The notes under the pieces: model-generated
Seen by the model: the letters and a program-made list of their open reading frames with translations, nothing else
What the model was told of the DNA's origin: nothing
Database searches by the model: none
Position numbers and translations under genes: made by a program
Source: Gammaproteobacteria bacterium
GTDB taxonomy: Bacteria > Pseudomonadota > Gammaproteobacteria > SZUA-140
Assembly: GCA_016124415.1 (NCBI GenBank)
Contig: WGNS01000052.1
Span: 1 to 53,444, forward strand
DNA length: 53,444 bases
Reading direction: 5' to 3'
Shown here: positions 3,630 to 28,583 of the stretch, piece after piece
Layout: the number at the start of each line of letters is the position of its first letter
Numbering within the stretch: position 1 is the stretch's first letter

Positions 3630-4253
3630 TCACTCGCCCGCGGCTTGCGGACGTTCGCCGGCCAGCACGTCGGGTTTGACGCGTTTCAGGAACCCTGCAC
3701 AAGCGCCGACGACAATGGCCTCGGTGATCATGATCGGAATATGCATGGCCAGCGCGTAACCGGCGGTCGCGAAGAACTCCTCACCGGTCGTGACCAACGC
3801 AAGCGCCAGGATGATACCCGAGCTGATCGTTCCGGTCGCGCCCGCGAGCGCACCGAATATGACCTCTTTCTTTGGCATATTGAAACGGTGGCGCTGCTGC
3901 CAAACGCCGTAAGCGACGAGTCCGCCGCCACCTAGCATCAGCGTGTTGATACCGATCACGGAGACGCCGCCGTGACCGAACAATATCGCCTGAAGCACGA
4001 TTCCGAGCAATATCGCCGGGAAGGCGCGCATTCCGAGCACGACACCGACAAGCCCGTTCAAAATCAGGTGCACGCTGGTCGGCCCGACGGGCACGTGGAT
4101 CAGCGATGCCACGAAAAAGACCGAAGTGATGACCGCGATCTTGGGCACCTCTTCCATATCCATCTTGCGCAAGGTGGCCGCGGCCAGGATGCCGGTGCCG
4201 ACAAAACCCGTGGCCAGCACGGGAGCGGAAAGGATACCGTCAGAAATATGCAT
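3630..4253 (-). CDS. cbiM: ECF substrate-binding component CbiM/NikM
   Basis: N-terminal MHISDG metal-binding motif; SVHLILNGLVG; multiple TM helices. Confidence 0.92.
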   Translation of the reverse strand: MHISDGILSAPVLATGFVGTGILAAATLRKMDMEEVPKIAVITSVFFVASLIHVPVGPTSVHLILNGLVGVVLGMRAFPAILLGIVLQAILFGHGGVSVIGINTLMLGGGGLVAYGVWQQRHRFNMPKKEVIFGALAGATGTISSGIILALALVTTGEEFFATAGYALAMHIPIMITEAIVVGACAGFLKRVKPDVLAGERPQAAGE

Positions 4254-4319
4254 ATTTGATCCTTATCTAGTTTCGCATTTCGGAACAAACCGTTTATTCA
4301 CTCGTCGCAACTCCGTCGC

Positions 4320-4601
4320 TCAGAGCTCCAATCCCAGGTCGATGAACGCAGGATTCAGGCGACGGGCGGAACCGATATAGATCGGGATCGTGATGATCTT
4401 GGGCACATGCCGCATTGAGTCCCCCGCCCGCCCCGACTGAAGCTCCGAGAACTGGTGACAGGCCTCGAGCACCACGGTGGCGTCATCTTCCAACACTTCC
4501 ACCAACTTACATTTGACGCTTTTATAGATGACGCGGCTACCCACTTGCTTGCGAAGCCGCTCGAAATCTATCGGCTGCGATCCTTCCGTCATATCCGACA
4601 T
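4320..4601 (-). CDS. Small soluble hypothetical protein inside the Ni/Co operon
   Basis: 93-aa ORF co-oriented and filling the gap between nikL-like and cbiM. Confidence 0.65.
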   Translation of the reverse strand: MSDMTEGSQPIDFERLRKQVGSRVIYKSVKCKLVEVLEDDATVVLEACHQFSELQSGRAGDSMRHVPKIITIPIYIGSARRLNPAFIDLGLEL

Positions 4602-4707
4602 CGCAACACCTCACGATACACAAATAAACTTATCGGCAGATTGATCGTCCGTGACCAGCCTCTCCGTCCCTAAAATCGCCCTGAAGTCGCTCGCACGACC
4701 AAGACAA

Positions 4708-5340
4708 CTATGTCTTTTTGTTGCCGCCCTCGCGAAGCTTGCGCGCCTGAAGGAAGAAATACACGCCCAGGAAGCCGCCGATGATGCCGATACCGCCGAC
4801 GATGTCACTGACGCCCCGACGCTCCTTGAGCTCGGACAGCCCTCTGACCACCGGCATGACGGCCTCGCCGACCTCGCGACGGACAATGCGACGCAAAGCG
4901 GCCTCATCGACCCCGGCCATGCCGCCTCCCGACACGGCGGCGCCGGCTTCGGGTGCGGGCGCCGTTGCCGCCTTAGCGGCCGGCTCGGCCGTACCCGGCT
5001 CGCCCGCCATCTCCGCCGCCTTGAGGATATATTCGGCCTTGTGGCCCATGCTGGCCGTCAAGGTGATGCGCAGATCGCCCTTGATCTTGGGCACCGGGAA
5101 GGTCACTTCGCCTTTGTCGTTGGTCGTGCCCGACCAGAGCGTTTTACCCTGCTCGTCGAACGCCTCAACCTTACTGTTCAACGCCTTCTTGCCATCCGCG
5201 AAATAGCCTTCAAGGAAGACCTGATCGCCCTCGACGTAGGCAAACATGCTGACCTTATGGGCCATGGCCAATGCCGGAGCGCCTAGCATGACGATCAATA
5301 ACACCAGCGTCTTCACGTATCGTATCACCGAGATGTTCAT
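4708..5340 (-). CDS. NikL/CbiL-like accessory component (signal peptide, periplasmic domain, C-terminal TM)
   Basis: AHKVSMFAYVEG after signal peptide; GHKAEY; C-terminal DIVGGIGIIGG helix; position in the operon. Confidence 0.75.
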   Translation of the reverse strand: MNISVIRYVKTLVLLIVMLGAPALAMAHKVSMFAYVEGDQVFLEGYFADGKKALNSKVEAFDEQGKTLWSGTTNDKGEVTFPVPKIKGDLRITLTASMGHKAEYILKAAEMAGEPGTAEPAAKAATAPAPEAGAAVSGGGMAGVDEAALRRIVRREVGEAVMPVVRGLSELKERRGVSDIVGGIGIIGGFLGVYFFLQARKLREGGNKKT

Positions 5341-5389
5341 AAGTATCCCCACTATATCCTAATCAAGGTTTCGGACAAGCTTCAGAGAC

Positions 5390-5431
5390 GGAAAAGGCGC
5401 GTTGACCGATCACCCGATCAGGCAACGCGCC
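5390..5431 (-). terminator. Intrinsic terminator after the DUF4198 gene
   Basis: ggcgcgttg / caacgcgcc stem followed by TTTT on the minus strand. Confidence 0.65.
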
Positions 5432-5451
5432 ACCGATTTCCGAGGCGACGA

Positions 5452-6252
5452 CTACTTCATGTCGTGCGTCTTGACCCAGAGCACTGCGCCAATCTCGATG
5501 GGATAGTCCTTACCCTCGTGGCGAATGGTCTTGTCATCCTCGTTGAGGGCGGCGAAACCCCACCATCCACTCTTTGGCATCGCATAGGTGAAGACACCGT
5601 TGGCATCAGCCTTGACGACTTGAGTAACCATTGGGGAAGCATCGACCTCCATCTTGCCGTCGGCGAAGTATTCCACTTCTACCTCGGTACCCGGCATGGG
5701 CTTGCCGTTAACGAGCACCTGGCCCTGGAAGACGTTATTCGTGTACAGGCCGTACGGACGGGTCAGCGGCACGATTTCGGTCTTGAGGCCGACCGGCTTG
5801 TCCCAGCCCTCTTCGAGGCCGAAGCCGTTGACCACGACCTTGGTGTAGTGAACGATAAAGGTATCCTCGGCCGGCTCCCAATAGGGCTTGGGCACCATAT
5901 AGAAGGTATGGTCGCCTGGGCCGCGGAACTTGTAGTTAGCCTCGAAGATATCCCTCTTGGCTCCGGTCACATCCTTGCGCTTGGCAGGTTTCAGCGACGA
6001 CAGCAGATCATGCTTCTCGCCGTCCGATGTCATGACCCCGAAGGCCTCCGGCTTGACCAGATTCATACCCTGTCCTTCAAAGGGATGCCAGAACATGGCA
6101 TCGAGCTTGAGGGTACGGGACTCACCATTCATGACCATGTCATCCGAAGGGATCAGCATGCCGAAGTGGGCCTGGGCCTGCATGCTGACCGCGAGACCGG
6201 CGGCCATGGTCGTCATCAGGGAATACTTGCGAATTTTGGATACTGTGTTCAT
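5452..6252 (-). CDS. DUF4198 / NikK-like periplasmic protein
   Basis: Signal peptide ending AQA|HFGMLIP; PYWEPAED; EIVPLTRPY; GWWGFAAL. Confidence 0.85.
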
Positions 6253-6304
6253 TTCATACTCCGGAAATGGCTAGTTTGACGTATGTCCTTTTATCGGGGA
6301 CGAC

Positions 6305-7525
6305 TTAGAAGTTGAGCTGACCGCGCAAGCCGTAGACCGTAACGGATCCACGATCGGCATCGCCGCCGTTGTTGCTGATGACCTGTACGTCCGGCGTCAG
6401 CGTGAAGTGATCGGAAATGCCGATCTTGTAGTAGAGTTCGGTGTGAGACTCATCATCCTGATTCGTCACGCCCATCTGACTCTTGATGAAGGGGTCCTTG
6501 TTGACCTTGATCACACCGTAGCCGATTCCGAACGCATCGTCCTCGCGACCCCAGTTGGCACCGCTGGCCGACGCGCCCAGACTCCAGACCGACTCGACGG
6601 TGTTTTCGGCTAGATCGCTCTTCTGGCTCGAATAGCGGGCGAATACGCCCATCTCATTCGGCAGCGCCTGATCGAAGCTGATACCCCAGGCCGTATTCGA
6701 GGAAACCGTACCGATAATATTGCCGTTGGCGTCCACGCTGGCACCTGCGATCTTGTGGAAGCGGCGCTGATCCTGAATCACATAGAAGCGGTAATTGCCT
6801 TCCAGACCGCCGAAGCCGGGTTTGACGTTGGCCTGTACGACACCATACGGGCGATTGCCGAAGGCATCAAAACCGGCACCGTTGCCGTTGGCCAGGATCA
6901 CGGTAAGGTCCAGGTTATCGGTAGCGGCCATGTTCACGGCTATGCCCGGGGCATAGTAGCGATCCAGCTCCCCATAACTCGTGCCGGGCGAACGCGTGAA
7001 GATGGCCGACATGAACTGGTCGGTCTCATCGTTGGCATAGGCGTTGTCATCATACATGCTGTGGACGTCGAGCTTACCAAAGTCAACGACGAGCTTTTCG
7101 TCCATGTATTCGCCTTCGTAGTACAACTGCGAGAGGTTTGGCGAGTTGCTATCGGTCACACCGTTGGTCGTATCGGTTGCAAAGATATCGGTCACAAAGG
7201 CGTCGTAGTTGGCTGTCGATAGCGAACCGAGCCGGCTATCCACGCCGTGACCGTTACCGGCCTCGAAGGCAGCGATGACCTTGCCGCTGTTACTGACCCT
7301 GGCCTCGATGCTCAAATCAAAGGAATAGGTCAAATCAAGGGCATCGCCGTTGCCGTTGTCGTTACCGTCGGTCCCCTGCAGGAACCAGGTCACGCCCCCC
7401 TCAATACCGAGTCCGGCTACATGATGCGTAATCAGATGACCGCCCTCTTCCTCACCGTCGTGGGCAAAGGCTCCCCCCGAGAACATCGCAAGCGTAGCGG
7501 CTACCGGCAATACCATTTTTTTCAT
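6305..7525 (-). CDS. Outer-membrane porin (OprB/carbohydrate-porin-like beta-barrel), first gene of the metal-uptake operon
   Basis: Signal peptide AFA|HDG; amphipathic beta strands; TLTPDVQ; C-terminal Phe (GLRGQLNF). Start set at 7525 (GGAG upstream). Confidence 0.8.
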   Translation of the reverse strand: MKKMVLPVAATLAMFSGGAFAHDGEEEGGHLITHHVAGLGIEGGVTWFLQGTDGNDNGNGDALDLTYSFDLSIEARVSNSGKVIAAFEAGNGHGVDSRLGSLSTANYDAFVTDIFATDTTNGVTDSNSPNLSQLYYEGEYMDEKLVVDFGKLDVHSMYDDNAYANDETDQFMSAIFTRSPGTSYGELDRYYAPGIAVNMAATDNLDLTVILANGNGAGFDAFGNRPYGVVQANVKPGFGGLEGNYRFYVIQDQRRFHKIAGASVDANGNIIGTVSSNTAWGISFDQALPNEMGVFARYSSQKSDLAENTVESVWSLGASASGANWGREDDAFGIGYGVIKVNKDPFIKSQMGVTNQDDESHTELYYKIGISDHFTLTPDVQVISNNGGDADRGSVTVYGLRGQLNF

Positions 7526-7569
7526 GTTGCACTTCTCCATTAACACGATTGTCTATTCAGTAAATTTCA

Positions 7570-7596
7570 GTATGAACATCTAAACGGAAATCTTAT
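7570..7596. promoter_or_regulatory. Second, weaker NikR-like site
   Basis: GTATGA-N15-TCTTAT, same spacing as the main site. Confidence 0.35.
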
Positions 7597-7647
7597 GGCG
7601 TCCTATAAATTCGGCAGTTTTTATTAGGACTTAAACGGGTGTATTCC

Positions 7648-7674
7648 GTATGACGATTAAATAATACCTCATAC
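7648..7674. promoter_or_regulatory. NikR-like operator
   Basis: Perfect GTATGA-N15-TCATAC with AT-rich spacer; E. coli NikR consensus is GTATGA-N16-TCATAC. Confidence 0.7.
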
Positions 7675-7689
7675 ACTTCGCGTATGCAA
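7661..7689 (-). promoter_or_regulatory. Sigma70 promoter of the Ni/Co operon
   Basis: TTGCAT-N17-TATTAT on the minus strand; the -10 lies inside the operator. Confidence 0.6.
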
Positions 7690-7855
7690 CCAAACAGGAC
7701 TGATTTAACCGCTCTTCAGGAAGCAATAAGACTCGAAGCCGCGCGAAAGGGCTTGCCGATCCCCATCGGATTGAATAGAATGTCGCGTTCTCGCGCAGGG
7801 CCTGTCCGCCCGCGCGCACGGACCGCAAGGACCAACAGCAACAATTGAGAGGAAA

Positions 7856-8068
7856 ATGGCGATGAAGCCCGAGATTCATCCGGCATACAACGAGATCACC
7901 GTGAACTGCAGCTGCGGCAACACCTTCAAGACCCGCTCGACGGCCGGACGCGACTTGAACCTGGACGTCTGTTCCAAGTGTCATCCGTTCTACACCGGTA
8001 AGCAGAAGCTCGTCGACACGGCCGGTCGTGTGGACAAGTTCCGACAGAAGTACGGCTTCAAGGGATAA
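7856..8068 (+). CDS. rpmE: 50S ribosomal protein L31 (zinc-binding type)
   Basis: [26 protein letters not shown]. Confidence 0.97.
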
Positions 8069-8095
8069 TCCCGAGACCGCTTCTGATTCGAGATG

Positions 8096-8123
8096 CAGGC
8101 GCCCCAGCGGCGCCTGTTTCATT
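8096..8123 (+). terminator. Intrinsic terminator after rpmE
   Basis: caggcgcc-ccagc-ggcgcctg then tttcatt. Confidence 0.7.
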
Positions 8124-8939
8124 ATGGGCTTCGTGAAACATTTCGTTCGGGTCCTCCTTGCCGCCGCACTGGGCGTTGCCTCGCACCAGTCCCTGGTCTT
8201 CGCTGCCTGCCCGCAGCCCCGCATCGATGAAACCGCCAAGGTCGCCTACGTCTACGACGGCGATACGGTCCGCCTCAAAGACGGACGCCATATTCGGCTG
8301 ATCGGTATCAATACACCCGAACTCGCGCACAAAAGCAAGCACCGCCCCACATCCGAGCCGACCCAGGACGAACCGCTTGCGCGGAAAGCACGCCAAGCGG
8401 TTATCCGCCTGCTCGGGGATTCAGGCAAGATAGGCCTACAATTCGGCGAGGACCGTGAGGACCGCTATCACCGCGCGCTCGCCCATATCTTTCTCGCCGA
8501 CGGCAGCAGTCTCGAAATCCATCTCCTGGAGGCGGGTCTTGCGACCACGATCGCCATCCCGCCCAACATAGCCCGCCTTGACTGCTATCTGGTGGCCGAG
8601 CGACAGGCGCGGAAAAGTGGTCTGGGCATCTGGCGCGATCCCTACTACCGGCCGCTCGCGGCCGCTTCGGTCACGAGCGGCAATCGCGGTTATCATCGGG
8701 TGCGCGGAATCGTCGAGCACGTCGGCCGTAGCCGCAAATCCGTCTGGCTCGACTTCACCGGTGGTTTTTCGGCCCGCATCCCGTTGAAGGACCTGACCTA
8801 TTTCGGGGGCATCCGGCCCGAGCACTGGCTGAAACGTGAAATCACGGTGCGCGGCTGGATCTCGTCTTATCGTGGCGAGGCGCTCATGACGATCCGGCAT
8901 CCGGCCCAGATAGAGACTGACGATGACGACGAACGATGA
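8124..8939 (+). CDS. Exported thermonuclease (SNase) family protein with C-terminal OB-like domain
   Basis: VYDGDT, IRLIGINTPE, DRYHRALAHI, ARKSGLGIW; signal-like N-terminus from ATG 8124. Confidence 0.85.
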   Translation: MGFVKHFVRVLLAAALGVASHQSLVFAACPQPRIDETAKVAYVYDGDTVRLKDGRHIRLIGINTPELAHKSKHRPTSEPTQDEPLARKARQAVIRLLGDSGKIGLQFGEDREDRYHRALAHIFLADGSSLEIHLLEAGLATTIAIPPNIARLDCYLVAERQARKSGLGIWRDPYYRPLAAASVTSGNRGYHRVRGIVEHVGRSRKSVWLDFTGGFSARIPLKDLTYFGGIRPEHWLKREITVRGWISSYRGEALMTIRHPAQIETDDDDER

Positions 8940-10275
8940 ATTCATAGCGCGCGACCTCGCCTGCGTCTGGCACCCCTGCACCCAGATGAAAGATCACGAG
9001 GCCTATCCGCCGATCCCGATCCGAAGAGCCGAGGGTGTCTGGCTGGAGGACCTCGATGGCAACCGCTACCTGGACGCCATCAGCTCCTGGTGGGTCAACC
9101 TGTTCGGCCATGCCAACCCGCGCATCAATGCGGCCCTCAATCGCCAGCTCGAGACGCTGGAACACGTCCTACTGGCGGGCTTCAGCCATGAACCCGCCGT
9201 GGATCTCGCCGAGCAGCTCGTTGCCCTGACACCGGAGGGTCTCACACGCTGTTTCTATACCGACAACGGCTCCTCGGCCATCGAGGTCGCGCTCAAGATG
9301 AGCTATCACTACTGGCGCAATCTGGGCGAAGAAAAGCGGACGCGTTTTATCAGCCTCAGTAACAGCTATCACGGCGAGACGCTGGGCGCGCTCTCGGTCG
9401 GCAACGTCCCACTTTATAAAGAGATCTATGGCCCCTTGCTGCTCGAACCCGTCACAGTCGCCGCGCCGGACGATTATCTGCGCCCGAGGGACGAGGCGCC
9501 GGAAGACTATCTCAAGCGCCGTTGCGAAGAAATGGAATCAGCCCTGGAACATCACGCGGGCACGGTATGCGCCGTGATCGTCGAACCGCTCGTGCAATGC
9601 GCGGGCTCCATGCGCATGTACGATCCGGCTTACCTGACCTGGCTTAGGGAGGCCTGCGACCGCCACAACGTCCATCTGATCGCCGACGAGATCGCGGTCG
9701 GCTTCGGCCGTACCGGCACGATGTTCGCCTGCGAGCAGGCCGGCATCACCCCGGACCTCATGTGTCTGTCCAAGGGACTCACGGGCGGATATCTGCCACT
9801 CGCCGTGACGCTTTGCACCGACCGAATCTATCAGGCCTTCTACGATGATTACGGGACGCTCAAGGCCTTTCTGCACTCCCACAGCTATACCGGCAACCCC
9901 CTCGGATGCCGCGCCGCACTCGCCACGCTGGATATCTTTGCCGAGGACGACATCATCGTCCGCAACCGGGAACTGAGCCGGATCATGGCGGAATCCGTCG
10001 CCCACCTCGCCGGCCATCCGCACATAGGCGATATTCGCCAGCGCGGCATGATTCTGGCTTTGGAAATGGTCGCGAACAAGACCGACCGGACGCCTTATGC
10101 CTGGCGGGAACGCCGCGGCCAGCGCGTTTATCGACATGGACTTGCCAACGGTATGTTGCTGCGCCCCCTGGGCGACGTCGTTTATTTCATGCCGCCCTAC
10201 GTCATCACGCCCGATGAGATACGGGCGATGACGCGCGTGGCGTCGGAAGGCATCGACATCGCCACCAAGGACTGA
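8923..10275 (+). CDS. bioA: Adenosylmethionine-8-amino-7-oxononanoate aminotransferase
   Basis: [49 protein letters not shown]. Confidence 0.96.
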
Positions 10276-10281
10276 CGAAAT

Positions 10282-11016
10282 ATGAGCCAGATTCCCCGCA
10301 TCTATCACTCCGAACCGCTAACAGCGGGAACACAAGTTACGCTCGAGGAGCAGGCCGGACGCCACATCCTGCGCGTGCTGCGACTCCGTCCCGGGGCAGA
10401 GTTGATACTGTTCGACGGCGCGGGCGGAGAGTATGAGGCCCGCCTTGCAGAAGGCGGCCGGGCGGCCGTTGCCGACGTCATCTCTTTTACGGATATCGAT
10501 CGCGAAAGCCGACTGGAAATCCACCTGGCCCAGGTCATCGCCCGGGGGGAGCGTATGGACCAGATCATTCAAAAAGCCGTGGAGCTGGGAGTACAACGGA
10601 TCACGCCGCTGACGAGCGAGCGTTGCGGCGTGCGCCTGGAACCCGGTAAGGCGGTAAAACGCCTGCTGCACTGGCAGGGCGTTATCGCCAGCGCGTGTGA
10701 ACAATGCGGCCGCAACCGTCTGCCGGAAATCGACGATTGCATCGACCTCTCACCGTGGCTTGCCGACGGCGCGGGCGGCATTCGGTTCATACTGCATCCC
10801 GAGGCGAGTGAGCGGCTCGCGGATCTGGCCGCGCCCGAGGATCGGAAAGTCACCTTACTCGTCGGCCCCGAAGGAGGGCTGACCGATGCCGAAGTGGACG
10901 CCGCCTTGGCGTGCGGCTTCCATGCGATCAGGCTCGGGCCGCGCGTCCTGCGCACCGAAACCGCCGGGATGGCCGCCGTCTCGACACTGCAGGCGCTATG
11001 GGGAGATTTTTGTTGA
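10282..11016 (+). CDS. rsmE: 16S rRNA m3U1498 methyltransferase
   Basis: HILRVLRL, QKAVELGV, ACEQCGR, VGPEGG, LGPRVLRTETA. Confidence 0.96.
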   Translation: MSQIPRIYHSEPLTAGTQVTLEEQAGRHILRVLRLRPGAELILFDGAGGEYEARLAEGGRAAVADVISFTDIDRESRLEIHLAQVIARGERMDQIIQKAVELGVQRITPLTSERCGVRLEPGKAVKRLLHWQGVIASACEQCGRNRLPEIDDCIDLSPWLADGAGGIRFILHPEASERLADLAAPEDRKVTLLVGPEGGLTDAEVDAALACGFHAIRLGPRVLRTETAGMAAVSTLQALWGDFC

Positions 11017-12735: not shown

Positions 12736-13040
12736 GAGGCACCCAAAGCGTGACTGGTCAGATATTCGAGAATCTCTGCGCGCTGCTCAACGGTCAATGG
12801 CGCCTTGCCCTGTGTTGCCATGTGGGTCTGCATGCGCGCGACGACGCCGGGCCATTCGTCGGCGCCATGCGCTTTAGGATTCGGCGGCAGGTGACAACGG
12901 CCGCAGCCCTTACGGAAAGCGAGCGGTCCATCCGCAACGGCCGCAGGACCGCTGCTCTCGGTCCCCGAACAGCCGAGCAAGGGTACGAAAAACACCGCAA
13001 ACGCGGCCCACCGCAGGTGGGCGAACAACGGCCTAGTCAT
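12732..13040 (-). CDS. Monoheme cytochrome c lipoprotein
   Basis: Lipobox LLGC; CGRCH; distal Met candidates in ARMQTHM. Confidence 0.8.
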   Translation of the reverse strand: MTRPLFAHLRWAAFAVFFVPLLGCSGTESSGPAAVADGPLAFRKGCGRCHLPPNPKAHGADEWPGVVARMQTHMATQGKAPLTVEQRAEILEYLTSHALGAS

Positions 13041-13509
13041 CCGAGCGCCTGTCTCCCGTTTTGCCGTCTTCCCCGTTCTCGCCCTCGTCTTCCGATTGCT
13101 TTTCCTTGTCGCTATCCAGGCGGCCGGCGGCCTTGGAGCCGTATAGGTTGACCATGAAGTAGACGAAGGTCCCGGCCACGGCGATATAGACCAGCGCGGC
13201 CAAAAAGCCCCAGTTGACCCAGCTGCGCTCGTAACCCGGCCGGTCGCCCCAGAACGGAAAGCTCAGGCCCACGGCCACGAGGACGACAACGAAAACCACA
13301 GCTAAAAACCACTTGGGCACACCGCGTTGGGATTCCGGGATCTTGTCGACGAGTTCCCAGTCCTCCATCCCACGTTTGGCAAGACGTTCTTCCTCTGAGG
13401 CGTAGCCGAAGTGATCGTTCGGGGCCGCCCCCCATTCACCCTGTCGGGCGGGTTTGCTACCGACCCGATCGGCTCCGGACTCGGCGCCCTTTTTCTCGGT
13501 CTCAACCAT
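13033..13509 (-). CDS. Two-TM protein, paralogue of 21284..21916, CcoP-N-terminus-like
   Basis: DKIPESQRGVPKWF...FPFWGDRP resembles GGIMEDNNRLPQP...FPLWGQRP of the paralogue. Confidence 0.7.
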   Translation of the reverse strand: MVETEKKGAESGADRVGSKPARQGEWGAAPNDHFGYASEEERLAKRGMEDWELVDKIPESQRGVPKWFLAVVFVVVLVAVGLSFPFWGDRPGYERSWVNWGFLAALVYIAVAGTFVYFMVNLYGSKAAGRLDSDKEKQSEDEGENGEDGKTGDRRSDD

Positions 13510-19806: not shown

Positions 19807-20285
19807 CAGTCCTCTCCCTTCAACTTCTTGCATTCGCTCTGCTTGAGTTCGTCCAGATACCAATCCTTAACCCGTAAACTGGCCAGATAGTCGACAAGCA
19901 TGTTTCTTTCACCCGGCGGCATGTCCGCGTACGACGGCATTCTAAACTCCGCCTTCAGGCGTGACGAAAGAATCTTTTGAGGATCCTTGGCGGCAAGGTA
20001 TTCCGCCAGCCATTCACGCGACCGCAGGGACCCGATACCGTCAAGGGCGGGCGCCGGTACCGTGCGCAGCATATCCTTTACGGTCCATAGCGAGTGGCAG
20101 GACTTGCATTGATATTTGTGATACACCGCCATCGCGTCCCGATTCAACTGGGTCGATGCCGTCGTATAGAAGGGGATTTCCATATCGTCTTCTTTGACGT
20201 TTTCCTGGTGAACGGCATTTTTCGCCATCAGCGTCAAAACGACGGCCGCTATTCCAAGCAGAATAAATTTTTCTCCCTTACGCAT
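19803..20285 (-). CDS. Membrane-anchored monoheme cytochrome c, CcoO-like fold
   Basis: N-terminal TM; CKSCH; APALDGIGSLRSREWL; RMPSY distal Met. Confidence 0.88.
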   Translation of the reverse strand: MRKGEKFILLGIAAVVLTLMAKNAVHQENVKEDDMEIPFYTTASTQLNRDAMAVYHKYQCKSCHSLWTVKDMLRTVPAPALDGIGSLRSREWLAEYLAAKDPQKILSSRLKAEFRMPSYADMPPGERNMLVDYLASLRVKDWYLDELKQSECKKLKGEDC

Positions 20286-20574
20286 GATTGCGTTTGTTTG
20301 CGGCTTCCCGTCTCTGGGCCTCCTTCTCCTTTAGCACTTCAACACGACGTTCTTCCTGCCGCTTGTTGACAGCCTGGGCTTTCGCAAATTCCTCGGGATC
20401 CATTTTGTCTCTATCCTTTTCATCGAAAACGAGGTATTTGATATCTTCATCAAATTGCTCGTTTTTGTGCGCCCACCGTATACCGATCATGGCCGCAAGA
20501 ATGATCAGACCACCTGCCACCATCCAAACATAGATGGTCCATCCGTCGGGTAAACCCTGAAAAAATTCCTTCAT
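20278..20574 (-). CDS. ccoS: cbb3 oxidase maturation protein CcoS-like, with charged C-terminal extension
   Basis: TM then WAHKNEQFDED (CcoS-type WA...QFDD); start reset to ATG 20574 with GAGG RBS. Confidence 0.72.
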   Translation of the reverse strand: MKEFFQGLPDGWTIYVWMVAGGLIILAAMIGIRWAHKNEQFDEDIKYLVFDEKDRDKMDPEEFAKAQAVNKRQEERRVEVLKEKEAQRREAANKRNHA

Positions 20575-20615
20575 TTTGAAACCTCGTAAAGGTTGATGAT
20601 TCGACGAGGGGGCGC

Positions 20616-20996: not shown

Positions 20997-21059
20997 GATT
21001 GGCGGGGTTTTAAGGCGTATCCGCGCACCCTTGTCGCTACAAAGTGTTTTGCCACCCCC

Positions 21060-21093
21060 AGAAACAACGATGCCGCTCAAAGAGCGGCATCGT
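21060..21093 (-). terminator. Intrinsic terminator closing the ccoN-ccoO-ccoP-like-sORF unit
   Basis: 12-bp stem acgatgccgctc / gagcggcatcgt followed by tgtttct on the minus strand. Confidence 0.7.
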
Positions 21094-21135
21094 GTCTTCT
21101 GATATCCGAATCAGATATCGTTTTTCAGCATCCGA

Positions 21136-21264
21136 TCAGGACATGATCGGCGGCTTCTTTCCCTTGTCGTGCTTATCGATGAAGAAGCTGTACAGGAAAG
21201 GACCCGTGAAAACGATGATGATCGGCAACAACAGGATCAACGGTGGATTATCGACTTCAATCAT
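21136..21264 (-). CDS. 42-aa single-TM small protein in the cco operon
   Basis: Not in ORF track. AGGGGG RBS; MIEVDNPPLILLLPIIIVFTGPFLYSFFIDKHDKGKKPPIMS. Confidence 0.75.
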   Translation of the reverse strand: MIEVDNPPLILLLPIIIVFTGPFLYSFFIDKHDKGKKPPIMS

Positions 21265-21283
21265 TTTAATTCCCCCTAATTAA

Positions 21284-21916
21284 TCAATGAGCCTTGTCGT
21301 GATCCGGCTGCCACTCATGGTTCGGCAGACGCTTCACGGCGATCATGACGGCAATGCAGAAATACGTGACGTAGAAAACGTCGATCGTATAGCCCTTATC
21401 CCACCAGGGCTGCAGACGCTCACGGCGGGACCCGTCAGGCAACATGTTGCCCTCAAAGTTAGCCATAACCATCTTGTCACCCACGACGCTGAACTCGGCT
21501 AGATTCTTACCGGCGTTCTTCAACTCAATGATCTGGCCCTTGATCATGCGCAGGTCATCCATCTCGAGCGGGTGACGCTCTTGAAGGGCGGCCCAGACAG
21601 AACCCTGGCTCTTCACCTTGTCGACGATAAACTTCATCTTGGCCTTGTCGTCTGACAGGGCCTGAACCTCGGGGGTGTCCATCAGGGCAACGTACTCTTC
21701 GTACATTGCCCCGTTCGGACGCTGTCCCCAAAGAGGGAAGGTGATCATGAATGCGGTCATGATGGTCAGACCGAGCAGCCAAACAACAGGCTGCGGCAGT
21801 CGGTTGTTGTCCTCCATGATTCCGCCGAGGCTTTCGCCTTCCCAGACCTCACGAGCAGATACGTTCTGCTCCTCGTCCGAGAGCGAGTACAGAGGATTAT
21901 TGAATACCCATACCAT
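21284..21916 (-). CDS. Heme-less CcoP-N-terminus-like membrane protein
   Basis: WEGESLGGIMEDNNRLPQPVVWLL resembles the CcoP DGIxEYDNPLPxWW motif; directly after ccoO; no CxxCH. Confidence 0.75.
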   Translation of the reverse strand: MVWVFNNPLYSLSDEEQNVSAREVWEGESLGGIMEDNNRLPQPVVWLLGLTIMTAFMITFPLWGQRPNGAMYEEYVALMDTPEVQALSDDKAKMKFIVDKVKSQGSVWAALQERHPLEMDDLRMIKGQIIELKNAGKNLAEFSVVGDKMVMANFEGNMLPDGSRRERLQPWWDKGYTIDVFYVTYFCIAVMIAVKRLPNHEWQPDHDKAH

Positions 21917-21933: not shown

Positions 21934-22884
21934 TTATTTAAGACTTAAGATGAAATCGATCAGCATGCGAGCATCGCTGTCCTGTGCGGGCACAGGAACA
22001 TCGGGCGGATAAACCCGCTCGCCGGCCGTATAGGCGTTGTAATCGGCACGCCACTTGTCGTAATCGATCCGGTTGCCCGACGCATCCTTCTCACCCCACA
22101 GATAATCGAAGCGGGGCATGATGGAGTGCGGCTGAACCAGGCGCGGATTGAAGAAGTGCATCATCATCCACTCTCTGGAAGAGTTGCGCGAACCAATGTG
22201 CAGCAGATCCGGGGCCTTACGGTCGGAACCGAAAGCAGTCGGAGTCTCACTGTTGAAGTCACCCAGAGCGGGCGGCGCACCAAAGACCTGCCAGTCCTGC
22301 GTCTCCTCAGGCAGCAGGGTATGACACCACCAGCAGCCTTCGCGGACGAACATGATCTTACCGGAGCCGATCTTCTGAATGTCGGAGTCCTTAACGGAGC
22401 TCAGAACAACGTCGGGTGTCCAGTTACGAGTGGCCGTAGCGTTTTCGATGTACGGATACTTCTTACCCTCGTAGCGGCCTTCCTGAACCAGGAAGACAGC
22501 ACCTTCAGCCTCGCGGGCCTCATTGATATGACCTTTCTCAAGGCTCAGGTCCTTGACGCCGACGCCGAGAATCCGGGGGTGCGGAATGGAACTCGTAAAC
22601 CGCACACCGGGTTCATAGACATAAGCGTAGGTCGGATCCATTGCAGCCCCCGTCCGCGGATCCTTCTTCAGGAGCACGGTCTTCGGCTTGCTCCAGCCGC
22701 GAAGGAACGGATCTTCCAGACTGAAACCACCCACTCGTCCGAACGACAGACTCTTTCTGACGCCGTATTCGGTGGAACCCACTTTGACGATGTCCAGGCT
22801 CGGCATGTACAGGGTGATCATCATCGACCCACCCAATGCGAGACCGAACATACGCGCTCCGATCTTATACTCTCTAAAAGCCAC
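21934..22884 (-). CDS. ccoO: cbb3-type cytochrome c oxidase subunit II with N-terminal extension
   Basis: FVREGCWWCHT, GSDRKAPDL, PHSIMPRFDYLW; GGAGGAG RBS before GTG. Confidence 0.9.
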   Translation of the reverse strand: MAFREYKIGARMFGLALGGSMMITLYMPSLDIVKVGSTEYGVRKSLSFGRVGGFSLEDPFLRGWSKPKTVLLKKDPRTGAAMDPTYAYVYEPGVRFTSSIPHPRILGVGVKDLSLEKGHINEAREAEGAVFLVQEGRYEGKKYPYIENATATRNWTPDVVLSSVKDSDIQKIGSGKIMFVREGCWWCHTLLPEETQDWQVFGAPPALGDFNSETPTAFGSDRKAPDLLHIGSRNSSREWMMMHFFNPRLVQPHSIMPRFDYLWGEKDASGNRIDYDKWRADYNAYTAGERVYPPDVPVPAQDSDARMLIDFILSLK

Positions 22885-22927: not shown

Positions 22928-24334
22928 TCAACGCTCGTATGCCAGTTCGTGCGGCAGACGGCCCTCAGGAATCAAGGTGCCTTCGCGTGCGGTCATCCAC
23001 ATGTTGTAGAGCCAGACGCAGTTTCCGGTGAACACCATCGTACCGCCAACCCAACGAGCGATCATGTACGGATGCTCGGCGATAACGGTGTCGATGTAAG
23101 GCACCTCGTAGATCTTGGCGGCACCCTGGATCAGACCGGCGATGGTCATGGAGATCCAGTAAGTACAGAAGCCAATCAGCAGGAACCAGAAGTGGAAGTT
23201 AGCCAGAGCCAGCGAGTACAGTTTGCGACGCATAATCGTCTGCAGACCGTAGTAGACGGCGGAGGCCTCAAGGAAGGTAGAGAACCCAAGCAGGGCCAGG
23301 TGAGCGTGAGCCACAATCCAGCCGGTGCCATGGATGTACCAGTTGATGGCGCGAGTCTGCTGGAAGCCGCCCTGCATGTTCAGGGGGATAGCCAGAAGCA
23401 CACCGGTCATCGTGAACTTGGTCTCAACGTTGTCGACGAAGTAATGCCACTTGCCGGTCATCGTCAGGATCAGGTTCGAAACGAAGGCGATCGCGGGCAC
23501 CAGAATCAGCACGCCTTCCACCGAAGCGAAGGACTTCAGCCATTCGGGCAGCGGAGAAGACATCAGGTGATGGGCCGCCGGCGTGGAGTAGAACACGACA
23601 ACCGACCAGAAGTGCAAGTGACCGATACGATGCGAGTACAGCGGGTTACCGGTGATCTTCGGAACCGTGTAGTACGCGATAGCAGCGGCAACCGGCGTAA
23701 TCCAGAGACCCAGCACGTTATGAGCGAACCACCAGGTCAGGTAGGCTTCGGTCAAACCGGTCAGCTGGAAGTACTCAGGCAGGTTACCGACGAACAGCAC
23801 GATCCAGACCATGAACACGGCGCCAGCAAAGAACCAGTTGGTCGTGTAGATACCCTGGGTACGACGCTTGATGACGGTCATCCAGACGTTCAGGCCAAGC
23901 GGAATACCGATGAAGGCAAGCACGTAGATGTCGATGAACCAAGGAAAGTCGGAGTACTCGCGGCCGGAGCTGATACCGGCCCACAGCAAGCACAGCGCCA
24001 ACGACAGGCCCACGTTCCAGAGGAAGCAGTTCCAGACACCGAGCTTTTCGGACCACAGCTTGGTGTTACCCAGGGCCGGCGTGATGTACATCATCGCCAT
24101 CGCGAAGGCCATGGAAATCCAACCGAAAATAACGGCCATGACGTGCACCTGACGCATATGACCGAAAGAGAAGAACTCCGAACCCGTGACAAAGTCGGGG
24201 AATGCCAGCTTGGCGGCATTAAAGGAACCCAGACCCGTTCCGATCACGAACCAGATGATAGAGGAGATGCCAAAGTATACCGCAGCGGTACCTCTTGGAA
24301 TGTCATCCCCTTTTGCAAATAAATACTTAAACAT
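22928..24334 (-). CDS. ccoN: cbb3-type (C-family) heme-copper oxygen reductase subunit I
   Basis: RQVHVMAVIFGW, WWFAHNVLGLW, FYSTPAAHHL, VAHAHLALLGF: all six His ligands plus the helix-VII Tyr. Confidence 0.95.
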   Translation of the reverse strand: MFKYLFAKGDDIPRGTAAVYFGISSIIWFVIGTGLGSFNAAKLAFPDFVTGSEFFSFGHMRQVHVMAVIFGWISMAFAMAMMYITPALGNTKLWSEKLGVWNCFLWNVGLSLALCLLWAGISSGREYSDFPWFIDIYVLAFIGIPLGLNVWMTVIKRRTQGIYTTNWFFAGAVFMVWIVLFVGNLPEYFQLTGLTEAYLTWWFAHNVLGLWITPVAAAIAYYTVPKITGNPLYSHRIGHLHFWSVVVFYSTPAAHHLMSSPLPEWLKSFASVEGVLILVPAIAFVSNLILTMTGKWHYFVDNVETKFTMTGVLLAIPLNMQGGFQQTRAINWYIHGTGWIVAHAHLALLGFSTFLEASAVYYGLQTIMRRKLYSLALANFHFWFLLIGFCTYWISMTIAGLIQGAAKIYEVPYIDTVIAEHPYMIARWVGGTMVFTGNCVWLYNMWMTAREGTLIPEGRLPHELAYER

Positions 24335-24540
24335 GAAATATCCCCCTAGAACCTTTTGAATTCGATTCCTTACTTTCCGGCAGCAGCGGTCAATGCTTGC
24401 CCGGCATCATCAGATACCACGCGAACCACATACTCGAAAACGCAAGGATAATACCGCACAAAGTCGCAAACATTGCCATTTTTAGATCCCCTCTATACCC
24501 GAAATTTATAGCCCGACCGACTTCGCGGCCGTAAATGGAA

Positions 24541-25138: not shown

Positions 25139-25345
25139 ATGCCGCTCAAGGAAATCATCCTCTACAGCATAGTCGCCTTCTCGGCGTTGTTCATCCTCGG
25201 CTACACGGTCCATATGTTTGTGGGCGGCCTGGTCAGCCCTGCCACGGAAACGCTGTTGACGGTCATCGTATGCGCCGTCGGTGCGGCCGTCATCGGCTTT
25301 ATGGCCTGGGACGTCGCAAAGCGCAGGCGCGGAGCCCGTTACTGA
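25139..25345 (+). CDS. 68-aa 2-TM small protein
   Basis: AAGGA RBS; two TM helices; basic C-terminus. Confidence 0.75.
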   Translation: MPLKEIILYSIVAFSALFILGYTVHMFVGGLVSPATETLLTVIVCAVGAAVIGFMAWDVAKRRRGARY

Positions 25346-27619: not shown

Positions 27620-28411
27620 TTAGTCACCGACAGTTGTCGAACCCGTATCGAAGGTCATGAAGCCATGACGCTCCGGCGTACGCGAGTTGCCGATCGTGAG
27701 CGGCGACGCATGGGACAGGAAGGTCGCGATATCGCGAATTTCCGAATCCGTCAGGCTCTTGGCAACTTTCTGCATCTGAGCCATCGGGTCGTTGGCACGG
27801 GAGCCATCACGCCAGTGGTTCAGCTGATTGATGAGGTAAACGAACTTCTGGCCGCCGATCATAGGATAGATCGGGTCAACGCCGCGGCCGTTATAGTCGT
27901 GGCAGGAGCGGCAGGCGGGAACGCCACGCTCGGGAATGCCGTAATTGACGATGGCCTTGCCCTGGTATCCGACGCCGAGCTCCGTACCACCGGCCTTCAG
28001 GTCGGCCAGATTGGAAAGATCGGAAGCGCCGGGCAAAGTGCCGTGAGGACCGAGCGTGCTTGCATAGGCGGCGACATCACGGCGATCCTGGGGAGACAGA
28101 CCCTTTGCGTTCGTATTCATAACGAACATGGTCGTGTCCTGACGACGGTCGTTGGCAAAATCCTCGAGCGGCTTGACGATGAACTGCGAAATCTGGCCGG
28201 CCAGACGCGGCGTACCCATCGCATCGTTGCCCATACCGCCCTCGCCATGACAGGAGTTACAGGCCGGCACATCGCCCTTGCCCTGCGTGAAAATGGCCTT
28301 ACCGTTGCTGATACTGGCGGATGCATGACCCTCGGCGGCCTGCGCCTGAGGTCCAGCCACCCAAACTGCCGCACCGATCACCACTGATGCCAGCGTACTA
28401 AAACGTCGCAT
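27620..28411 (-). CDS. Periplasmic diheme cytochrome c4-type protein
   Basis: Signal peptide from ATG 28411 (GAGGGG RBS); CNSCH and CRSCH; PRLAGQ / PMIGGQ; FVMN and AQMQ distal Met. Confidence 0.92.
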   Translation of the reverse strand: MRRFSTLASVVIGAAVWVAGPQAQAAEGHASASISNGKAIFTQGKGDVPACNSCHGEGGMGNDAMGTPRLAGQISQFIVKPLEDFANDRRQDTTMFVMNTNAKGLSPQDRRDVAAYASTLGPHGTLPGASDLSNLADLKAGGTELGVGYQGKAIVNYGIPERGVPACRSCHDYNGRGVDPIYPMIGGQKFVYLINQLNHWRDGSRANDPMAQMQKVAKSLTDSEIRDIATFLSHASPLTIGNSRTPERHGFMTFDTGSTTVGD

Positions 28412-28583
28412 ATGAAGCCCCCTCTCGTTTTTTATCATTTCCGTAACCCTCGACCCGCGATGCTGCTCTCTCAGCCAGGTCAACGAGACCCCGCAACGCC
28501 GATATCGGCGCAACACGATCTCCGAGATGATTACAATATTAAACAGAATGTCCGAGTAGCATCCTTCGGAAAATCCGCAAGGA

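Follow-up and report, generated by a model that had tools for sequence, protein, structure and literature searches.

Which protein, if any, takes the place of CcoP in a cbb3-type oxidase whose operon specifies no dihaem subunit? The question is raised by a 53,444-nt stretch of DNA (contig WGNS01000052.1 of the GenBank assembly GCA_016124415.1, positions 1 to 53,444; hereafter the window) from a gammaproteobacterium of the SZUA-140 lineage. Here a ccoN-like gene for the catalytic subunit I (22928..24334, minus strand, 468 aa) and a ccoO-like gene for a monohaem subunit II (21934..22884, minus strand, 316 aa) are followed by genes for a 210-aa protein (21284..21916, minus strand) and for a 42-aa peptide with a single transmembrane (TM) helix (21136..21264, minus strand). 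We propose, at a probability of roughly 0.7, that the locus encodes a CcoP-less oxidase of the kind called "distal" cbb3, whose third subunit would be free of haem and derived from, or related to, the CcoP membrane anchor, accompanied by two micropeptides and with electrons entering at CcoO.

The third gene and the membrane anchor of CcoP

The 210-aa protein has one cysteine, no CxxCH motif and no match to a cytochrome c domain in Pfam, and CxxCH is equally absent from all 34 aligned members of its family. Its sole Pfam match in a scan at E <= 0.1, which likewise returned nothing for FixH (PF05751), is to FixP_N (E = 0.0079, 16.3 bits, the gathering score being 24.9 bits) and is located at GGIMEDNNRLPQPVVW together with the TM helix. 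A preliminary description of this DNA, made from the sequence alone, had spoken of a haem-less protein with a CcoP-like N-terminal motif behind ccoO, and this is indeed what the gene at 21284-21916 specifies. The profile search which that description had proposed as a check gives a match at the level of the family: FixP_N is recognised in 13 of 17 members, and the gathering score is surpassed by two relatives that are short or divergent (P0141 with 33.7 bits and P0153 with 27.1 bits). A search of the PDB sequences with a 17-member profile placed five different CcoP chains among the top matches (E = 0.04-0.8), all of them at the segment DGIxExDNPLPxWW. Profile-profile comparison with hhalign of the 34 members against eight canonical CcoPs from related genomes yielded a probability of 92.4% (E = 5e-7) over 77 columns, pairing residues 22-102 of the window protein with 49-148 of CcoP; E35 and P41, both invariant in the family, stand opposite the Glu and the Pro that do not vary in CcoP. 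The link is not demonstrable by single-sequence search, as phmmer, run with the 210-aa protein against 1.84 billion representatives, recovered 33 matches from the same small superfamily and no canonical CcoP, and the ccoP equivalog profile TIGR00782 scores 13.4 bits (E = 0.036) against a cut-off of 179.95 bits. Since the anchor domain is recognised while both the haem sites and an equivalog-level score are lacking, we regard the protein, on the strength of these comparisons, as a homologue of the N-terminal membrane anchor of CcoP only, i.e. as CcoP-anchor-like and not as a CcoP.

Family-wide invariance is seen at W25-E26, G31-G32-x-x-E35-x-N37-x-x-x-P41, T59-x-PLWGQRP, H115-P116, A-N-F-x-G (152-156), Q-P-W-W-D-x-G-Y (169-176), K195-R-L-P and P204-x-H206, with M119 and D120 being near-invariant. 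The predicted architecture comprises, in order, an acidic N-terminal loop, TM1, the PLWGQRP motif, a periplasmic helical domain of about 105 aa with a β-hairpin, the QPWWDxGY motif, TM2 and the KRLP...P-x-H tail. In the AlphaFold2 (AF2) model, which has a mean predicted local distance difference test score (pLDDT) of 72.9, an N-terminal helix (15-27), TM1 (42-62) and TM2 (176-195) are accompanied by a periplasmic part made up of a helical bundle (69-134) and a β-hairpin (142-151), both at pLDDT 85-91. From the homology to CcoP and from the KRLP tail, read by the positive-inside rule, both termini are predicted to be cytoplasmic. A Foldseek search of the model against the PDB returned nothing below E = 1, leaving the periplasmic domain without a known fold; the TM hairpin by itself is uninformative in such a comparison.

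A word-indexed search recovered 1,257 relatives of the 210-aa protein, the named ones being mostly annotated "hypothetical protein" in metagenome-assembled genomes (MAGs) of Gammaproteobacteria, and a scan of species genomes recovered 272 loci. Among 80 of these 272 loci, Gammaproteobacteria/Chromatiales MAGs, Zetaproteobacteria/Mariprofundaceae, Gallionella, Nitrosomonadales and Ferrovum (including the cultured F. myxofaciens P3G) are represented. Given that the exhaustive search of the 1.84 billion representatives found only the above 33 matches, the family constitutes a compact superfamily. Five more distant relatives, four of 100-130 aa and one of 183 aa, all share the two TM helices, the N-terminal motif and the motifs PLWGxRP and PWWDxGY. 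From the four short ones the periplasmic domain is missing, and each of these four is encoded directly after a ccoO whose product is 176-214 aa long; the 183-aa relative (L107) is preceded by an end-truncated, unannotated open reading frame (ORF). In one of the divergent loci (L109; ENA ERZ27237474 k141_30773, 3689-10333), a Pup-ligase gene adjoins the genes for CcoO (176 aa), a 110-aa hairpin protein and a cytochrome c, along with two mini COX1 proteins (191 and 200 aa), an FGE-like and a CcoG-like protein, with no full-length ccoN in the 5 kb shown.

The length of CcoO follows that of the third-gene product. In the window CcoO, which bears its haem site as CWWCH, the FixO profile covers only residues 174-266, and alignment against the short-type CcoO delineates two lineage-specific periplasmic inserts, at residues ~68-170 and ~266-300. 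Both extra segments are present in every locus of our comparison set of 82 related long-form loci (Gamma-, Beta- and Zetaproteobacteria, the cultured Ferrovum myxofaciens among them) and missing from the short-type CcoO. Thus, the periplasmic inserts of CcoO and of the third-gene protein are gained or lacking together, which suggests that the two additions may contact each other above CcoN, at the usual place of the CcoP dihaem domain. The first CcoO insert is modelled by AF2 at pLDDT 91-97; Foldseek with the CcoO model retrieved CcoO chains only, with no significant match for the insert. An OB-fold identity for it (RuvA domain I, SSB) appeared at a non-significant E of 0.2-3 and is not trusted. 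These inserts, like the short gene 5' of ccoN treated below, are additions to the preliminary description.

The catalytic subunit places the enzyme more broadly. CcoN matches COX1 with 255 bits and TIGR00780 with 224 bits against an equivalog cut-off of 583 bits, and aligns over its full length with Pseudomonas stutzeri CcoN (3MK7_A, E = 4e-62). The histidines of the motifs FGxxRxxH, WWxxHN, Y-x5-HH and H-x-H are all kept; as we read this alignment, under a presumed residue numbering, conservation extends to the ligands of haems b and b3, the three histidines of CuB and the cross-link tyrosine. The window enzyme thereby combines the CcoN ligand set and the monohaem CcoO that define the C family, and, since both CcoN and CcoO fall far below their equivalog cut-offs, it is, by sequence, a divergent C-family (cbb3-type) subfamily. 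A glutamine in the CcoN segment NMQGGF aligns with the glutamate of the P. stutzeri segment STFEGPM, which we take to be E323, hydrogen-bonded to the haem b3 histidine ligand. The substitution at this presumed position could have a bearing on O2 affinity.

The window ccoN is the only full-length CcoN gene in the 2.19-Mb, 80%-complete assembly, in which neither a canonical CcoP above threshold nor a FixQ was found. In the same taxonomic family the 210-aa gene is present in 16 of 19 genomes, and just one of these 16 carriers has a canonical CcoP; several of the CcoP-less carriers are 99-100% complete. Eight of ten further, diverse carriers (F. myxofaciens among them) are likewise without it, bringing the carrier genomes from which canonical CcoP is missing to 23 of 26. 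Hence, for the contrary sign to which the preliminary description had pointed, a canonical CcoP from elsewhere that co-purifies with this CcoN, a gene is found neither in the assembly itself nor in these 23 carriers.

The transcription unit and its two micropeptides

The ccoO gene and the gene for the 210-aa protein are separated by 17 nt, and the latter is preceded by the Shine-Dalgarno sequence GGGAGGGG. Its stop codon is followed after 19 nt by the ORF for the 42-aa peptide, with a Shine-Dalgarno sequence of its own (AGGGGGA, 6 nt 5' of the ATG). The order ccoN-ccoO-210aa-42aa is kept in 82 of the 82 related loci. Directly 5' of ccoN lies a further micro-ORF (24390..24479, minus strand), which encodes the 29-aa single-TM peptide MAMFATLCGIILAFSSMWFAWYLMMPGKH behind the Shine-Dalgarno sequence GAGGGG; homologous ORFs with the core LAFSSMWFAWYLLMP precede ccoN by 18-102 nt in 66 of 70 loci, and this ORF is probably the first gene of the oxidase unit. 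On the 3' side the unit is closed by an intrinsic-terminator-like hairpin (21067..21093, or 21057..21093 with its T-rich tail; minus strand), composed of a 12-bp stem, 8 pairs of which are GC, and a 3-nt loop, ACGATGCCGCTC-TTT-GAGCGGCATCGT, and followed by the tail TGTTTCT. A strong hairpin, usually with a T-run, is predicted 3' of the peptide gene in nearly all of the 82 loci (median best energy -25 kcal/mol). The gene arrangement thus points to a five-gene transcription unit that consists of the 29-aa peptide, ccoN, ccoO, the 210-aa protein and the 42-aa peptide and ends with the terminator. The preliminary description had counted four genes: the order that it gave from ccoN onwards is correct, as are the 42-aa single-TM ORF with a strong ribosome-binding site and the terminator after it on the minus strand, and its gene number has to be raised to five for the ORF upstream.

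The stem core ATGCCGC..GCGGCAT recurs at the terminator site in 25 of the 82 loci, against just two further occurrences in 0.9 Mb of locus sequence. A dispersed repeat of the repetitive extragenic palindromic (REP) kind was considered as the source of the stem and rejected, the core occurring once in the window. Such conservation of a terminator stem at the sequence level is unusual; the loci sharing the core (including L011-L066) span lineages between which protein identity is only about 60%. Searches near the operon for an FNR/ANR box (TTGAT-N4-ATCAA, with at most one mismatch) and between 20500 and 24900 for a sigma-70-like promoter found neither.

The 42-aa peptide (MIEVDNPPL...PFLYSFFIDKHDKGKK) has one TM helix between an acidic N-terminus and a basic C-terminus, a charge distribution from which an N-out, C-in topology is predicted. 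An orthologous ORF of 35-46 aa, each with an ATG and a GGAG-type Shine-Dalgarno sequence, is found 9-96 nt after the 210-aa gene in 82 of 82 loci, a count for which two over-extended ORF calls were trimmed to the conserved MID start. D5, P22, Y25, S26 and D30 are invariant in the family, for which the consensus is MIDxDN(G/P)PL...PFIYSFFVDxYDK. The entropies at codon positions 1, 2 and 3 are 0.89, 0.54 and 1.53, and the alternative frames are closed almost always; this periodicity indicates purifying selection on the protein. The 29-aa peptide returned no match in Pfam or PDB searches, and in one lineage (e.g. L050-L066) its homologues gain a Cys-rich C-terminal extension, CxxCG...CC.

As to the identity of these peptides, the preliminary description had seen in the 42-aa product an analogue of CcoQ. 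The CcoQ profile search that it suggested came out negative: FixQ (PF05545) matches none of 36 members of the 42-aa family at E <= 10, nor any of 25 members of the 29-aa family. No similarity of the 42-aa family to the FixS or FixP_N profiles was found, and profile searches of PDB chains with both peptide families retrieved only unrelated chains at E > 0.1, the presence of the CcoM chain in the searched set being unconfirmed. In position, too, the peptides depart from CcoQ, which would be expected as a single-TM gene between ccoO and ccoP: they lie after the CcoP-like gene and before ccoN, respectively. Identity of the small products with CcoQ, CcoS, CcoM or CcoH is accordingly rejected or unsupported by the profile tests. 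The "DNPPL" start of the 42-aa peptide was also considered as a second FixP_N-like element and discarded, hhalign against CcoP giving a probability of 0.3%. What survives of the earlier proposal is likeness in size, single TM helix, predicted topology and operon context, by which the 42-aa peptide may be termed a CcoQ/CcoM analogue and not a homologue, with no sequence test linking it to FixQ, FixS, FixP_N or CcoM.

Behind the terminator a conserved array continues with genes for a 104-aa protein, a 99-aa protein (20278..20577, minus strand), a cytochrome c, an FGE-like and a CcoG-like protein. The 99-aa protein has a weak FixS match (E = 0.004, residues 15-44) at WAHKNEQFDEDIKYLVFDE, succeeded by a long charged tail, and is likely a CcoS-like maturation factor; a weak FixS gene also lies 3' of the hairpin-protein gene in the locus L108. 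Adjoining the CcoG-like gene of the window is a 158-aa paralogue of the CcoP-anchor-like protein that has no periplasmic insert (13033..13509, minus strand) and matches the 210-aa family profile in hhalign (probability 87.9%, E = 3e-6, residues 18-68). The paralogue hints at a further protein of the anchor type among the maturation genes of the cluster. In the locus L009, too, a gene occupies the matching position after the CcoG-like gene. Upstream of ccoN, a 520-nt gap between genes for proteins of 151 aa and 96 aa holds a 68-aa ORF with two TM helices (25139-25345, plus strand).

Subunits, assembly factors and the entry of electrons

Taken together, these gene families lead to the proposal that the subunit described as missing in genome papers is probably present in a haem-free form. 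The 210-aa protein would dock on CcoN in the manner of the CcoP anchor, with its acidic loop at the cytoplasmic mouth of the CcoN proton channel, and its periplasmic domain and the co-varying CcoO inserts would occupy the space of the missing dihaem domain. The single haem c of CcoO would then be the direct point of entry for electrons delivered by soluble periplasmic cytochromes, for example the linked dihaem protein of the Cyc1/c4 type. Both peptides, the 42-aa one (N-out, C-in) as well as the 29-aa one, would be small structural or stabilising subunits, functionally comparable to CcoQ and CcoM and not homologous to them. We infer the status of the 210-aa protein and of the peptides as subunits from gene content and conservation.

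The putative donor is encoded in a separate operon upstream by a gene for a periplasmic, Cyc1-like dihaem cytochrome c4 (27620..28411, minus strand; either M at 28411 or M at 28438 may be the start). Its product has two Cytochrom_C domains and a Sec-type signal ending AQA/AE, and its best PDB matches are cytochrome c-552 of 1H1O (E = 1.5e-23), which we take to be the c4-type Cyc1 of Acidithiobacillus ferrooxidans, and the P. aeruginosa c4 of the bc1-cbb3 supercomplex. In all 12 relatives with both genes on one contig, the c4 gene lies on the same strand, 6.5-9.6 kb upstream of the 210-aa gene. The c4 is a credible candidate for the electron donor.

Several observations weigh against the proposed enzyme. 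The window protein taken alone stays below the FixP_N threshold (16.3 against 24.9 bits), and the alignable homologous stretch is short, at most 77 columns. The placement of the invariant CcoP glutamate (Glu49) at the entrance of the proton channel, reportedly made in the P. stutzeri structure paper, is an assumption here. Finally, proteomics of PV-1, as quoted in PMC5520029, reportedly saw CcoNO only.

The last of these points also speaks for a different function, namely that the 210-aa protein and/or the 42-aa peptide are transient assembly or maturation factors, comparable to CcoH, CcoS or Pseudomonas CcoQ, and not stable subunits; we consider this unlikely, if far from fanciful. It has a precedent in P. 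aeruginosa CcoQ, which is operon-encoded but does not occur in the mature enzyme and is regarded as an assembly factor (PMC10556555). Maturation-type genes, moreover, abound in the cluster (CcoG-like, CcoS-like, thioredoxin-like and FGE-like). However, both genes under consideration stand inside the structural unit, before the conserved terminator, whereas the recognisable maturation genes are found behind it or in other operons; neither product matches FixH or FixS; and bottom-up proteomics routinely misses small hydrophobic proteins. Moreover, the conserved part of the 210-aa protein is exactly the CcoP segment, which in solved structures is in permanent contact with CcoN. The 42-aa peptide may be a subunit or an assembly factor, in view of CcoM, which stabilises the P. 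stutzeri oxidase complex (PMC4742706) and whose role we propose here for the peptides, and of CcoQ with its absence from the mature P. aeruginosa enzyme.

A second alternative, not exclusive of the haem-free third subunit and in effect an extension of it, assigns an active function to the periplasmic domain that the 210-aa protein carries, whether by itself or jointly with the inserts of CcoO: it could be a platform on which the carrier of Fe oxidation (Cyc1/c4) docks specifically, or could bind a metal or non-covalent cofactor in place of the dihaem wire. The confident folding of the domain (pLDDT 85-91) with no fold match in the PDB, the invariant H115-P116 and A-N-F-x-G (152-156) and near-invariant M119/D120 within it, its co-variation with the two CcoO inserts and the constant linkage of the c4 gene would all accord with such a module. 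Against it, no metal- or cofactor-binding motif is recognisable, there is no conserved cysteine, and the short relatives function without the domain; we consider the idea unlikely.

A third issue is the origin of the anchor. The preliminary description had held that CcoP was split, with the anchor retained in the oxidase unit and the dihaem function moved to the soluble c4. The haem-less homologue of the anchor is there, but the fission and the transfer to c4 are not shown: at the distance given above and in another operon, the c4 gene is not beside the anchor as a fission would leave it, and the c4 resembles the CcoP haem domain no more than any c4 would. Furthermore, a haem-less hairpin follows ccoO in several much more divergent clusters too, which implies that the haem-less form is old and could equally be ancestral to CcoP; some 77 alignable columns do not decide the direction of evolution. 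One may therefore conceive, as a doubtful conjecture, of the haem-less hairpin as the third subunit with which cbb3 oxidases began, a "proto-CcoP" from which CcoP arose by fusion with a c4-type dihaem cytochrome, while in the iron oxidisers the hairpin and CcoO together acquired periplasmic domains as a Cyc1/c4 port for Fe(II)-derived electrons to the CcoO haem. If so, the distal enzyme would be an evolutionary intermediate and a missing link between extracellular iron oxidation and O2 reduction.

The weakest alternative, that the CcoP-like motif is convergent or fortuitous in an unrelated two-TM protein merely neighbouring ccoO, draws on the sub-threshold single-sequence FixP_N match (E = 0.0079), the modest PDB profile matches (E = 0.04-0.8) and the absence of a canonical CcoP from the phmmer matches among 1.8 billion representatives, but is very improbable given that independent tests (five CcoP chains, relatives above the Pfam gathering score, hhalign at 92% and E = 5e-7) agree on motif and register and that the gene keeps its place behind ccoO without exception in lineages far apart.

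Relation to known oxidases

In neutrophilic and acidophilic iron oxidisers, as in related electro-autotrophs, the chief terminal oxidases are the distal cbb3 enzymes, which are expressed at very high levels. If a haem-free third subunit is indeed part of them, a minimal functional cbb3 oxidase would require the anchor of CcoP, perhaps because of the proton-channel entrance, but none of its haems. Electron entry at CcoO would define the docking site of Cyc1/c4, and the last step from Fe(II) to O2 would become directly testable. Three gene families, today annotated as "hypothetical protein" or, in the case of the micro-ORFs, often uncalled, would also become nameable by annotation pipelines, the 210-aa family alone comprising about 1,250 database clusters and 272 species genomes.

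The label "distal" for such clusters reportedly traces to Ducluzeau, Ouchane and Nitschke (2008). From its taxa and gene content the window cluster would belong to this type. Distal clusters are described from Zetaproteobacteria, Gallionellaceae, Ferrovum and Chromatiales-like Gammaproteobacteria and share with the window ccoNO without ccoQP and a linked Cyc1-type cytochrome, high expression being a further trait of the type. Distal and proximal (ccoNOQP) cbb3 oxidases are said to be unlike in the subunits that make them up, with the distal ones very highly expressed (PMC7029218, PMC10734462, PMC8788666); in S. lithotrophicus ES-1, distal ccoNO reach the 98-99.5th expression percentile (PMC8788666 and its supplement).

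Comparison with CcoP/FixP (PF14715 followed by two cytochrome c domains; TIGR00782; 3MK7 chain C) brings out both kinship and departure. Like the gene for the 210-aa protein, that for CcoP comes after ccoO, and the two proteins have in common the acidic loop, the conserved Glu, the N-x-x-P motif, the TM helix and an aromatic-Pro motif at its periplasmic end. In contrast to CcoP, the 210-aa protein is without CxxCH and the cytochrome c domains and adds a helical domain with no known fold, a C-terminal TM2 after the invariant QPWWDxGY, and the KRLP...P-x-H tail, placed in the cytoplasm by the positive-inside rule. The two peptides are comparable to CcoQ/FixQ (PF05545) and to CcoM (36 aa, P. stutzeri, 5DJQ) in being single-TM products of the same size from an oxidase operon, and CcoQ shares with them the basic C-terminus; they differ in their distinct motifs, MIDxDNxP...PFIYSFFVD and LAFSSMWFAWYLLMP, no sequence similarity having been found. 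Descriptions of the distal oxidases (PMC7029218, PMC8788666, PMC10734462) name only ccoN and ccoO, give the other subunits as "absent" and leave the haem-less protein and the micropeptides unnamed. Thus, the oxidase class represented in the window is already known, while the extra subunits proposed for it here are not named in this literature on iron oxidisers.

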